NCBI GenBank assembly: GCA_964016885.1
Contig: OZ024740.1
Coordinates: 49,042,001 to 49,106,000, forward strand
Length of the DNA stretch: 64,000 nucleotides
Direction of reading: 5' to 3'
Source of the DNA: Eledone cirrhosa
Taxonomy: Eukaryota
Shown: positions 30,462 through 55,224 of the stretch, one piece after another
Numbering within the stretch: the stretch's first letter is position 1
How the letters are laid out: each line of letters starts with the position of its first letter
Notes under the pieces: model-generated
The model's database searches: none
Told to the model about the DNA's origin: nothing
What the model saw: the letters and a program-made list of their open reading frames with translations, nothing else
Program-made: the position numbers and the translations under genes

Positions 30462-30735
30462 ATATGTATATGTATATATATATAAATGTAAGTATGTATG
30501 TCTACGTACATACATATATGTATACAGACGTACAGTAGCATGCATATATATACATATATATATATATATATATATATACATATATATACACATATGCATA
30601 CAGGTACACATACATATATGCACGCATCAGTTTAGCCGACGTTTATTATAACGCCGCTTTGTTCGTTTGTTTGTCAACAAACCGAACAGCCTGAATTTAT
30701 GCCATATGGTGTTAAGGCAACCACGTCACCTTTTT

Positions 30736-30822
30736 GTTCAACACTGACACAGGAACGATGTACTAGTTTCAAGCTTGTTAGCTATCATCAGCACCGTTTA
30801 CCCATCTGCCAGATAGTTGAAC
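30736..30822 (-). ncRNA. Type I hammerhead ribozyme, copy 1 (core 30754-30798)
   Basis: gttcaac.tat.ctggc.ag.atggg.ta.aacggtg CTGATGA t agct aaca agct t GAA ACTAGT A catcgtt.cctgt.gtcag.t.gttgaac. Confidence 0.85.
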
Positions 30823-30871
30823 GTTCGAAAGTATATACTTTCCTTATGAAAATTAACGGCTGAGCAGCCTA

Positions 30872-30879
30872 ATTTGCAT
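30872..30879 (-). promoter_or_regulatory. Octamer ATGCAAAT upstream of the hammerhead (also 54816-54823 on +; mutated in copy 2)
   Basis: Exact octamer ~50 bp 5' of extended stem I; function is inferred. Confidence 0.4.
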
Positions 30880-31235
30880 ATTGAGTGAGTTAAATCGGTC
30901 AGGCATACCGAAAACGATAAGTTGAAAAAAATGCAAACGAAATTTCATTTCTCACTCTTAGTATGGCACTTACTTAAATGTAAGTATGTATGTCTACGTA
31001 CATACATATATGTATACAGACGTACAGTAGCATGCATATATATACATATATATATATATATATATATATATATATATACATATATATACACATATACATA
31101 CAGGTACACATACATATATGCACGCATCAGTTTAGCCGACATTTATTATAACGCCGCTTTGTTCGTTTGTTTGTCAACAAACCGAACAGCCTGAATTTAT
31201 GCCATACGGTGTTAAGGCAACCACGTCACCTTTTT

Positions 31236-31322
31236 GTTCAACACTGACACAGGAACGATGTACTAGTTTCAAGCTTGTTAGCTATCATCAGCACCGTATA
31301 CCCATCTGCCAGATAGTTGAAC
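31236..31322 (-). ncRNA. Type I hammerhead ribozyme, copy 2
   Basis: Same as copy 1 with one stem I mismatch. Confidence 0.82.
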
Positions 31323-31501
31323 GTTCGAAAGTATATACTTTCCTTATGAAAATTAACGGCTGAGCAGCCTAATTTTCATATTGAGTGAGTTAAATCGGTC
31401 AGGCATACCGAAAACGATAAGTTGAAAAAAATGAAAACGAAATTTCATTTCTCACTCTTAGTATGGCACTTACTTAAATGTAAGTATGTATGTCTACGTA
31501 C

Positions 31502-50700: not shown

Positions 50701-51295
50701 GAAGTCATTGTCGTCTGTTAGAGCAGTAGTGTGTATTAGGGACTCGTAAAACCTATCCTTAAGTTCGTCTGGCAGCCCCGATTGGGGTGCGTAAGCTGAT
50801 ATTATTGTGGTAATTGTTTTATTCAGGACTAGTCTGAGTTTAATGATTCTTGCATTTACCCTGTACACTGAGGTTACTTTATCTACCCACTTGTCAGCTA
50901 GTAGTATACCTACACCACCCATCCCATCGTCATTTCCCACCCAGAAAAATTTGTAGCACCGACTTTTTCCTACCAGGACTCTGGCAGACTCTCCTCTCCA
51001 TCTAGTCTCTTGCACACAGTATACATCAATTTCCTTTTGCTCTAGCATTTCTACGATTTCTCCTGCTCTTCCTTTCATTGAGCCTACATTGATGGTACCA
51101 ACTTGGAGTTTTGGGCATTTTTCGACACTCGTAGGGAAGGGTCTCTGGGTTGGCGCTTCACATGGGTGCTTGGTAGCTCGCAGATTCATATTTCATCTAT
51201 TGATTCAGAGTTGCTCAAATTTATTCTCAGCTCATCCATCCATAACGGTGGGAAAAATTGAGGGCTAGAAGAACAGTGGTGGTGGGATAATGGTA
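47782..51295 (-). mobile_element. RTE family A, near full-length pseudogene (several stops and frameshifts)
   Basis: ORF pieces 50614-51189, 49812-50645, 48643-49707 and 48082-48492 tile APE, RT and the C-terminus. Confidence 0.93.
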
Positions 51296-51331
51296 TGTAT
51301 ATATATATATATATATATATATATATATATA

Positions 51332-53822
51332 TCATCATCACCGTTTTACGTCCGTTCTTCCACGCTAGCATGGGTTAGACGGGTTGTCCTGTTGTGGGCA
51401 GTGTCTGGTCGGCTGACCATGCCTTGCTCATACAGGAACTGATCTGGCTTGATTTCTACAGCTGGATGCCCTTCCTAACACCAACCTCATTTACAGTGAG
51501 TGCTGGGTGCTTTTTCGTGGCGCCTACACGTCCACTTTACAGTGTGGGCTGGGTGCTTTTTTGCCGTGGCACCTCCACGACCACCTTGCGGTGGGGGGGG
51601 GGGCATATTGTTTATATGCTTCAGCATGTACCCATGGGAGGTCGAGTACCCTGTATTACTGCGTGACGCCAGAAGTCACGGTCGTGTGTCATTGACTTTG
51701 AGAGGTGTAGTTGGGTAAGGTCGGCTTTTATCACCTCATCCCAAGTCATCTTGGGTCTCCCCACTCCGCGGTTTCCATCAACTTCTAGTGCTCTGCACCT
51801 TTTTATGCAGCTGTCATCCTTCATACGCATCACATGTCCATACCAGCGTAACCGCCTCTCCTGCACGCAGCATTTGATTCCTCTTATGCTCAGTCTCTCT
51901 CTCAATTCATTTATGCTTTGTCGTTCACGTATATTACTGTTACACATCCATCGGAGCATGCAGGCTTCGTTTCTCTCTAATCTACGTAAGTCTTCCACCT
52001 TCAGCGCCCAGGTCTCACTACCATGCAACATCGCTGTTCGGATACACGCATCATACAGTCTGCCTTTCATTCTGAGGGAGAAGCCTTTTGCAGCTAGCAG
52101 TGGTAGTAGTTCCCTAAACTTCTTCCATCCCGTTCTTACCCTAGTTATTGTACTTTCTGAGCACCCACCTCCGTTGCTAATTCGGTCACCTAGGTAGCAG
52201 AAGCTGTCTACTGTTTCTACAGGGCCCTCCCAGAGATTGGTGGTACTTGTTTCCTGTGGCTGTTTGCTTGCTGTTTCAGCACAGCTGCTGCATGTGAATC
52301 CTACATTCTTAATTAAGCTTCCTGAGATCCCGCTACATCTCTTGTGTACCCATTGTTTGCATTTGGGGCAAAGAATGGAGTTCCTACCTACACCTTTCCT
52401 ACATACTGAGCAAGGCCATTTCCCTGAGGGGATCTGGGTTCTGTTTTCTCGTCTACTTATAAGGACCTTAGTCTTTGTCATGTTGACTTTGAGGCCCTTT
52501 CTCTCTAGTCCCTGCTTCCAGGTTTGGAATTTATTCTCTAGTTCTACCATAGATTCAGCTATGAGTGCGAGGTCATCAGCATACAGGAGTTCCCATGGGC
52601 ATCCGGTCTTAAACTCCTCCGTTATTGCCTGCAGGACTATGATGAACAGGAGAGGGCTAAGAACAGAGCCCTGGTGGACCCCAACCTGTACGCTAAATTC
52701 CTCGCTATACTCATTGCCAATCCTAACTTTGCTGACTGCTCCCCTATACATGGCTTGTACCGCTTTCACAAGCCATTCATCTACTCCTAGTTTTCTAAGA
52801 GCCCACCAGATTACTGCACGTGGAACTCTGTCAAAGGCTTTCTCAAGGTCGACAAATGCCAAGTAGAGTGGCTTACTTTTAGCTAGGTACTTTTCCTGTA
52901 ATTGCCTCACAAGGAAGAGCGCATCAGTGGTGCCTTTCCCTGGTACAAACCCAAATTGCATCTCGTCTATATTCACCCGGTCCCTAATCAGCTGTGCTAT
53001 AACTCTTTCTGTTACTTTCATGACCTGGTCCATCAACTTTATACCTCTATAGTTTCCTCTATCTAGTGCATCGCCTTTACCTTTGTAGCAGTTGACAATG
53101 ATGCTACTGCACCAATCTTTTGGTATGGCCCCCTCTAGTATTACCTGGTTAACGATACGTGTGGTTATAGTGTGACCTACAGACCCAGATGCCTTCAGCA
53201 TCTCGGCAGCTATACCCGATGGACCGGTTGCCTTCCCTATCTTCATATCTCTGATTGCCTTACTTACTACGCTGCCGCTGACTTGTACTGCTGGTCCCTG
53301 TATAGGGTCTACGTGGGGTAGGGTCTCTTCTTCCCATGCATTCTCCTCATTTAGTAATCTATCATAATGACTCTTCCATGCATCTTTCTTCTCAGCACTT
53401 GTGAGGGCAAGCTCACCTTTATCATTCCGGATACACTTCTCTCCAATGACATCACAACTATCTCTGACACACTGCCTCGCAATCTTGAATACCTCCTGTT
53501 TCTGGTCCTCACGTTGTAAAACATGCTTGAATTTTCTATCCTCTGCTTCCCTCCTAGCTAAGTATACTTGTCGCCTAGCTTCCCTCTTGGTCTCTATGTA
53601 ATGTACCCTGCTCCCCCCGTTCTTCCATTCTTTCCATGCCTGTCTCTTGGCCTTGACTGCTTCATCTACCTTATTGTTCCACCACCAAGTCACTCTCCTC
53701 CTGCTTGAGGTCTTACTCCAGCCACAAACCTCATCCGTCGCCTCTAGTAAGTTATTTTTTAGGAACTCCCAGTTCTCTTCTACGTTAAATGTCTCTATCT
53801 GTTCTTCTTTACTGTCGTAGGC
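51332..53822 (-). mobile_element. RTE family A, 5'-truncated, open frame
   Basis: ORF 51621-53693. Confidence 0.95.
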
Positions 53823-54589
53823 ATATATATATATGTATATATATATATATATATATGTATATATATATATATATATATGTATATATATATATATATATAT
53901 ATATGTATATATATATATATATGTATATATATATATATATGTATATATATATGTATATATATATATATATGTATATATATATATATATGTATATATATAT
54001 ATGTATATATATATATATATATATATATATATGTATATATATATATATATGTATATATATATATATATGTATATATATATATATATATGTATATATATAT
54101 TTGTATATATATATATGTATATATATATATATATGTATATATATATATGTATATATATATATGTATATATATATATGTATATATATATATATATATATAT
54201 ATATATATGTATATATATATATATATATATATATATGTATATATATATATATATATATGTATATATATATATATATATATGTATGTATATATATATATAT
54301 ATATATGTATATATATATATATATATATATATGTATATATATATATATATATATATATATGTATATATATATATATATATATGTATATATATATATATAT
54401 ATATATATATATATATATATATATATGTATATATATATATATATATATATATATATATATATATATGTATATATATATATATATATATATATATATATAT
54501 ATATGTATATATATATATATATATATGTATATATATATATATATATATATGTATATATATATATATTTATGTATGTATGTATATATATA
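53823..54589. repeat. Long (TA)n/(TATG) tract
   Basis: Seen directly. Confidence 0.95.
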
Positions 54590-54655
54590 TCATCATCATC
54601 ATCATCATCGTTTAACGTCCGTGTTCCATGCTTGCATGGGTTTGGACGGAGGGTT
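54590..54655 (-). mobile_element. RTE family B-like extreme 3' tail only
   Basis: (CAT)n then cgtttaacgtccgtgttccatgcttgcatgggtttggacg. Confidence 0.8.
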
Positions 54656-54656
54656 T

Positions 54657-55224
54657 TATGCATGCTACTGTACGTCTGTATACATATATGTATGTACGTA
54701 TACATACATACTTACATTTAAGTAAGTGCCATACTAAGAGTGAGAAATGAAATTTCGTTTTCATTTTTTTCAACTTATCGTTTTCGGTATGCCTGACCGA
54801 TTTAACTCACTCAATATGCAAATTAGGCTGCTCAGCCGTTAATTTTCATAAGGAAAGTATATACTTTCGAACGTTCAACTATCTGGCAGATGGGTAAACG
54901 GTGCTGATGATAGCTAACAAGCTTGAAACTAGTACATTGTTCCTGTGTCAGTGTTGAACAAAAAGGTGACGTGGTTGCCTTAACACCGTATGGCATAAAT
55001 TCAGGCTGTTCGGTTTGTTGACAAACAAACGAACAAAGCTGCGTTATAATAAACGTCGGCTAAACTGATGCGTGCATATATGTATGTGTACCTGTGTGCA
55101 TGTATGTATATATATGTATGTATATATATATATATATATATATATATATATATGTATATATATGCATGCTACTGTACGTCTGTATACATATATGTATGTA
55201 TGTATACATACATACTTACATTTA
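54657..55224 (+). repeat. ~1.1 units of the ~500-bp hammerhead repeat (terminal ~65-bp direct redundancy)
   Basis: catgctactgtacgtc at 54661 and 55165; reverse complement of the 30484-31501 units. Confidence 0.9.
54873..54959 (+). ncRNA. Type I hammerhead ribozyme, copy 5 (core CTGATGA 54904-54910, GAAA 54925-54928, predicted cleavage after A54934)
   Basis: Full extended stem I; the C>T variant keeps a G-U pair. Confidence 0.85.

Follow-up and report, generated by a model that had tools for sequence, protein, structure and literature searches.

A stretch of 64,000 nucleotides of the genome of Eledone cirrhosa (GenBank assembly GCA_964016885.1, contig OZ024740.1, positions 49,042,001 to 49,106,000; hereafter the window) contains a non-coding unit of about 500 bp, which occurs as a tandem dimer, an inverted pair and a 1.1-unit copy and carries a type I hammerhead ribozyme motif in each of five copies. 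How does such a unit spread, and does its ribozyme take part in the copying? We analyzed the copies in the window together with their relatives in the 3.0-Gb genome. The unit family very probably represents a retrozyme mobilised by Penelope-like elements (PLEs). Mobilisation of this kind had been considered likely in the first-pass annotation of the window, and it receives direct support from the PLE-type ends of the insertions.

The repeat family and its ribozyme

All five hammerheads were located by a descriptor scan, and their core of 31 nt, from nucleotide C3 to the cleavage nucleotide, was identical in 5/5 copies (Table 1). The layout of the three insertions, with the inverted pair spanning 36028-36729, was as first described, and so was the predicted cleavage nucleotide of copy 5, A54934. 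Unit length ranges from 420 to 540 nt in the family, and the G+C content of the unit was 35.4%. Open reading frames (ORFs) were absent from the unit except for short or microsatellite-derived frames; neither a tRNA gene nor sense-strand RNA polymerase III (Pol III) boxes were found in it. The (TA)n-rich hairpin inside the unit varies in length and pattern across insertions and is mostly common to the units of one insertion.

The exact core had 10,718 matches genome-wide and 0 in the reversed control; a chance origin of the hammerhead is therefore excluded. With five tolerant positions left free, 26,639 matches were obtained, which at 0.5 kb each correspond by rough count to about 0.4% of the 3-Gb genome. 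A young subfamily showed 99–100% identity across distant loci, an older one had 91–94% identity to its query, and intermediate subfamilies were also present. Two pieces with at most about 90% identity, one of them with an inversion joint, were found in a contig set labelled as another organism.

Among the subfamilies the catalytic core is invariant and changes in the stems are compensatory. Comparison of 19 young with 30 old copies revealed a different majority base in 48/296 non-core columns and in 0/11 core columns (P about 0.14 for this comparison taken alone). Changes in the motif were confined to tolerant sites: N7 (U/C), loop II, the 10.1/11.1 pair (U-U to C-A), and N17 (A to U), the last leaving a cleavable triplet under the NUH rule. 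These comparisons suggest that the ribozyme is under selection in source elements. The G-C to G-U variants of stem I, cited in the first-pass annotation as preserving the pairing, do exist in two cases; they are single-copy changes, weak alone, and the real support comes from the comparison of subfamilies.

A structure assigned over 28 copies was paired in 96.2% of 784 cells (29–43% in slid controls). Its covariation score was matched by 1/500 shuffles, with three pairs showing double-sided change, in a test inflated by sequence kinship. Folding of an alignment of 20 longer copies yielded a helix between the stretch following the cut and the stretch preceding the next hammerhead; two of its pairs changed on both sides (U-A/A-U 10:10 and G-C/A-U 11:6 among the 20 copies). 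This helix is predicted to close the cut-to-cut monomer. The 172 aligned hammerhead regions contained no indel save one 2-nt insertion in loop III.

The extended stem I reported earlier is formed in copy 5, where together with stem II it reached -27.3 kcal/mol (z -3.57, 0/200 shuffles equally stable), whereas the copy at 31291 has lost the outer stem I pair through the sequence TACGGTG. The palindrome ACTAGT assigned earlier to stem III is also real, but stem III consists of a single pair and the palindrome falls into its tetraloop cap, CUAG. Folding of the whole hammerhead of copy 5 reproduced the long stem I, while the minimum-energy state was non-catalytic, with C3-U4-G5 paired with loop III. 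Dimeric cleavage, which had been deduced from the palindrome, would be favoured according to energy prediction: the double-hammerhead fold lies 4.2 kcal/mol above the minimum and two single hammerheads 15.0 kcal/mol above it. Inside a circle the active fold is predicted to lie 7.5 kcal/mol above the minimum, being unfavoured because C3-U4-G5 pair with loop III. The natural monomer folded as a circle was 69% paired (z about -10 versus 40 shuffles), a value to which the TA hairpin contributes.

The Rfam model Hammerhead_1, named in the first-pass annotation as a check, gave no match to the unit. The sole Rfam hammerhead match, Hammerhead_HH9, was obtained with a 341-nt stretch at 15 bits (E 0.66; threshold 52 bits), and no hammerhead was present among the 150 of 177 matches listed in a scan of the window. 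MicroRNA matches of the Rfam scan were rejected as (TA)n artefacts. The non-canonical U-U pair that closes stem II is also seen in one PLE hammerhead from the same genome; a precedent for it is axolotl HHR_Amex2, described as cleaving weakly as a monomer and well as a dimer (PMC7229834).

Insertion ends and Penelope-like elements

We analyzed end usage in every cluster found among the first 100 matches to the exact core on contig 1, taken in order of position. This sample comprised 55 insertions, each with at least one intact core as a requirement of membership. Arms terminated in 77/85 cases at either of two fixed points that lie 58 nt from each other, the upstream end A (...CTTACATTT) or the downstream end B (...CAACTTAT), and 57 of these 77 continued into DNA that a crude measure scored as strongly TA-rich. 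The 31 simple head-to-head pairs included 24 with one arm at A and the other at B, none with A/A or B/B, and 7 with one unclassified end. Thus, all classifiable inverted pairs (24/24) had one arm per end, with a probability of 0.5^24 if ends were independent. The 5' ends of copies were scattered, only 1/62 of those mapped lying within 6 nt of the cut site. The (TA)n flanks make target-site duplications undefinable.

In the window, the dimer ends at A and the second arm of the inverted pair at B, both followed by (TA)n. The (CAT)n tail typical for long interspersed nuclear elements (LINEs) was absent from the insertions, the ends of which are PLE-type; the LINEs adjacent to the copies in the window use the same microsatellite target with different ends. 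Two fixed 3' ends, a tail at one of them, an inverted 5'-truncated copy and a microsatellite target, which together characterise PLE insertion, were all found in the unit.

Four autonomous PLE families of this genome have two ends 40–64 nt apart and (TA)n flanks, and their inverted pairs carry the tail on one arm in 6/6 cases (loci L123, L126, L129, L131, L137, and L139). In two PLE families, numerous copies retain an open frame of 775 codons, with 98–99% identity; one open-frame family builds two-armed arrays with a spacing of 4.2 kb. Young full-length PLE arrays on both strands, with open frames and a retrozyme-like layout, were observed at C4:322582050-322599989 and C26:20693091-20706874. 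The PLEs appear to be endonuclease-positive (EN+) with a C-X4-CxxC linker, of the Neptune/Nematis type as judged by motif only, and the closest named relatives of their protein are from bivalves.

The published pattern of PLE insertion includes an optional tail at one end, an inverted 5'-truncated copy and a microsatellite bias (PMC8557442). For the PLE enzyme Poseidon PAc, two internal start sites explain the tail, and targets are AT-rich (PMC11167929). With EN+ PLEs as described in these two papers, the unit has in common two 3' ends, the optional tail, the inverted truncated copy, partial tandems and AT-rich or (TA)n targets. It differs from them by the absence of an ORF and by the length of the tail, 58 nt versus 30–40 nt in print.

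It is very improbable that the unit is an ordinary PLE remnant in the form of a pseudo-long terminal repeat (pseudo-LTR), a short interspersed nuclear element (SINE) moved by LINEs, or a satellite in which a hammerhead arose fortuitously. Such origins would agree with the position of all three window insertions next to LINE tails and with the solo pseudo-LTRs, which are common in this genome. However, a PLE protein match was found near the unit in just 10/122 regions and was continuous with it in none, so the unit is not a pseudo-LTR always attached to a PLE. In the regions analyzed in detail (L061, L098, L134/L141, and L188) the PLE is separated from the unit by a TA tract and by its own end; in the remaining six, the distance from the PLE match to the nearest hammerhead is at least about 1 kb. 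The SINE variant does not agree with the PLE-type ends and the lack of a (CAT)n tail, tRNA gene and sense Pol III boxes, nor is a satellite compatible with insertions that are dispersed, have fixed ends and show covariation. This group of explanations is largely refuted. A T-rich resemblance near the ends of the unit and of PLEs was also considered and dropped, being no better than in shuffles.

Table 1. Copies of the hammerhead unit in the window and their parts (positions of the window; strand relative to it).
Feature	Position	Strand	Details
Tandem dimer, 2.04 x 500-bp units	30484..31501	(-)	period 500
Type I hammerhead core	30761..30791	(-)	C3 30791, predicted cut after 30761
Type I hammerhead core	31261..31291	(-)	C3 31291, predicted cut after 31261
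Inverted arm, 5'-truncated	36028..36355	(-)	core 36293-36323, C3 36323; halts ~20 nt before end A
Second arm of inverted pair	36327..36729	(+)	core 36359-36389, C3 36359
58-nt tail, end A to end B	36672..36729	(+)	single arm only
1.1-unit copy, 5'-truncated	54657..55224	(+)	end A into (TA)n
Hammerhead, stem I extended to ~23 bp	54873..54959	(+)	core 54904-54934, C3 54904, predicted cut after A54934
Unit-internal (TA)n-rich hairpin	55075..55165	(+)	

The template of the insertions

We analyzed mismatches at 23 polymorphic sites. They amounted to 50/2205 (2.3%) between tandem units of one insertion, 20/1081 (1.9%) between its inverted arms and 47,651/132,791 (35.9%) between insertions; the respective values for a wider set were 3.7%, 4.1%, and 31%. 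A rare variant was common to both arms in 9/22 testable insertions versus 8/663 mismatched arm pairs. Two or more hammerheads on one arm were present in 23/55 insertions; up to 11 were counted in the family. In long arrays, a TA-spacer variant specific to the array recurs over 4–10 units and is found on either arm, and at least 10 spacer variants were each fixed over 3–10 units in separate arrays of one subfamily. The cut site is read through: among copies of the downstream 31-mer, 12,723/13,552 (94%) keep the exact 10 nt upstream, and point mutations together with random truncation would account for their loss in the rest. Since copies run through the cut site, a single round of copying on a cut linear monomer was rejected as their origin.

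A bottleneck of one unit followed by repeated copying is the simplest account of these data and points to a circle. The whole model, including a covalent RNA circle as the repeated template of the PLE reverse transcriptase, is in our view rather probable, although held with less assurance than PLE mobilisation itself. Tandem loci would be transcribed, and adjacent hammerheads are predicted to pair via the ACUAGU palindrome and excise a monomer of 420–540 nt. The long stem I would keep the two ends of the monomer close to each other until they are ligated. Once circular, the monomer is predicted to have its core folded onto loop III, which would guard it against re-cutting. At a (TA)n target, synthesis would start on each strand at its own fixed site, the two sites being 58 nt apart, to give two head-to-head arms with the tail on one; this footprint is observed in the genome, and a PLE enzyme presumably leaves it. 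Arms run a variable length, up to 9–11 units, past the cut site with a single variant repeated, as multi-round copying of one circle would produce. More tentatively, and short of favouring it outright, we suggest that rolling-circle reverse transcription could have left its record directly in these insertions, with a PLE enzyme nicking the two strands of (TA)n and priming each, at sites 58 nt apart, on one and the same circle made by the ribozyme, so that divergent arrays of identical units result; the young 4.2-kb PLEs with two-armed arrays may travel alike.

Several points weigh against the circle model and its link to PLEs. We failed to find a partner among PLEs: the unit was set against 3' regions from five PLE families in 18 comparisons, none of which beat shuffles (best p about 0.10), the search covering 40 of 150 listed GIY-YIG loci among 10,596 candidates. 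The two units of the window dimer have 5 differences over the first 380 positions, 1 of the 5 being polymorphic in the family. Only 6 of the 9 insertions with a variant on both arms are clean: L071 and L088 carry states of the older subfamily, and the pair at 36.3 kb of the window involves the inversion junction. Long arrays were partly retrieved by a homogeneous query and are biased toward homogeneity, and later local duplication is visible in arrays L214 and L226. Core loss in old single copies (5/330) and background change (213/8131) have about equal rates; selection would therefore act on source elements only. Only 1/9 Xenopus retrozyme dimers cleaved in vitro, as reported in a preprint (bioRxiv 10.64898/2026.07.22.740005), and for PLE insertion itself the hammerhead was found dispensable, with uncut RNA as the main substrate (PMC11167929).

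With these points in mind, the template used by a PLE could have been a linear multimer left uncut, transcribed from a small number of homogeneous arrays, and tandem duplication at the locus would have come later; the hammerhead would then cut rarely or serve protein binding or 5' trimming. Read-through of the cut site fits uncut RNA equally, unprocessed RNA was dominant in the PLE study just cited, and both the local two-unit duplications and the heterogeneous window dimer are in line with such a template. At the same time, an array cannot exceed the length of its source, and a mosaic source would be copied as a mosaic; a linear template thus needs a one-unit bottleneck at each step. The many spacer variants fixed over 3–10 units, together with locus-rare variants present on all units of both arms, make this explanation unlikely. 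Still less probable is a linear monomer with its ends held by the long stem I, on which the PLE enzyme jumps the nick repeatedly, no covalent circle being formed. It accounts for the one-unit bottleneck and fits ribozyme-free PLE-type arrays such as MRC1 (PMC8557442). However, the 5' ends are not enriched at the cut, as the single case within 6 nt indicates. Repeated template jumps usually leave errors, whereas 94% of copies preserve the junction to the base and the aligned hammerhead regions are nearly free of indels.

Array L214 (837-2737) has an ABAB order: alternate units differ at 13–15 sites and units two apart at 0–2, which suggests either that the template had two units or that two units were recently duplicated together. 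The idea of a dimer circle was dropped as anecdotal: 68 triplets comprised 39 with identical units, 11 with units i and i+2 closest and 14 with neighbours closest, and L214 was the only strong ABAB case.

Relation to known elements

By sequence the unit belongs to the non-LTR retrozymes, as had been proposed: it has a type I hammerhead per unit, dispersed tandems, no ORF and G+C below 45%, and PLEs are present in the genome. Cleavage and circles of such elements were demonstrated in coral, mussel, and axolotl (PMC7229834), and the copying of circles into tandems by PLE enzymes is a hypothesis in the discussion of that paper. The unit resembles the retrozymes described there (axolotl Rtz_331/Rtz_353 and the 350–390-bp repeats of mussel) in the type I hammerhead per unit, dispersed tandems, lack of an ORF and presence of PLEs. 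Its one-pair stem III with a palindromic tetraloop corresponds to HHR_Amex1 and its stem II U-U pair to HHR_Amex2 of the same paper. It is longer, at 420–540 nt versus 150–450 there, and contains a (TA)n hairpin; it also differs in the predicted self-blocking of the core, without which most metazoan circles are reported in that paper. The portion of that paper covered here describes neither a tail of the PLE type nor an inverted arm nor identity of units within insertions; cleavage and circles were demonstrated there and are predicted for the unit.

Vertebrate retrozymes were recently argued to be PLE derivatives (Li, Clavereau & Pollet 2026, the preprint cited above). These elements (51–972 bp, a range that includes the length of the unit) share with the unit tandem type I hammerheads, co-occurrence with PLEs and a proposed role of PLE enzymes. 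The link to PLEs is based in the preprint on co-occurrence and pseudo-LTR homology (24/57 Xenopus families), whereas here it is based on PLE-type ends, and homology was not found in the five PLE families compared. Local amplification after insertion is favoured in the preprint; in our insertions, in contrast, a variant is common to both arms. The mode of transposition of animal retrozymes is stated as open in its discussion, and no mollusc is named in the part of its text covered here.

MRC1 and other Chlamys elements, like the unit, are non-autonomous, head-to-tail multi-copy insertions of the PLE type; as described in PMC8557442, they have no canonical hammerhead and their 3' end is similar to that of an autonomous partner. 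Plant LTR retrozymes carry a type III hammerhead in LTRs and have a 4-bp target duplication, whereas the unit has type I and ends in (TA)n. The unit also differs from tRNA-derived SINEs, having neither sense Pol III A/B boxes nor a LINE-type tail. Hammerheads in PLEs are known (PMC4209133; reviewed in PMC6765202). The giant-squid genome paper gives 235 hammerhead matches, with no family described in the portion covered (PMC6962438).

A second, unrelated hammerhead family is present in the window at 59600-59985 (core 59883-59931) as an inverted pair in (TA)n, with PLE-type ends and a tail of ~90 nt on one arm; comparison with the unit gave no significant sequence match. It had 161 genome-wide candidates, with 94–99% identity among 40 scored. 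At least six more distinct type I hammerhead motifs were met incidentally in 20 loci, each 10 kb long (L121-L139), indicating a genome rich in hammerhead families. PLE families A and C (L121, L129, and L131) have a hammerhead-like motif with UUGAAAA instead of CUGAnGA, which resembles the U3-A8 core variant described in PMC4209133. At 42369-42560 lies a solo 3' end of family C, which has a variant of the hammerhead-like motif and runs out into (TA)n. The 3' part of a PLE ORF, frameshifted and with a GIY-YIG match, was found at 6141-6822 and has 88–90% identity to the L133 family.

LINE copies with (CAT)n tails occupy positions 31527-34664, 43438-46638, 51621-54566, and 60358-63213 of the window. 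They encode an endonuclease, a reverse transcriptase and, after it, a PHD finger; two have frames of more than 1,000 codons, and the closest database relatives of their proteins showed 50–54% identity. A 43-bp tandem repeat with more than 100 copies was found at 7-4500.

In the literature searched, which included few subscription papers and no repeat databases, we found neither a description of this family nor a two-end or shared-variant test applied to retrozymes. The class to which the family belongs, the non-LTR retrozymes, is already published; the addition made here is the anatomy of the insertions. The family implies tens of thousands of potential self-cleaving sites in the genome of Eledone cirrhosa. 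Co-occurrence of a young abundant retrozyme with young open-frame PLEs makes the circle hypothesis testable both in sequence and in vitro. If true, the rolling-circle reading would answer the question of how retrozymes transpose in animals and what purpose the hammerheads of PLEs serve.

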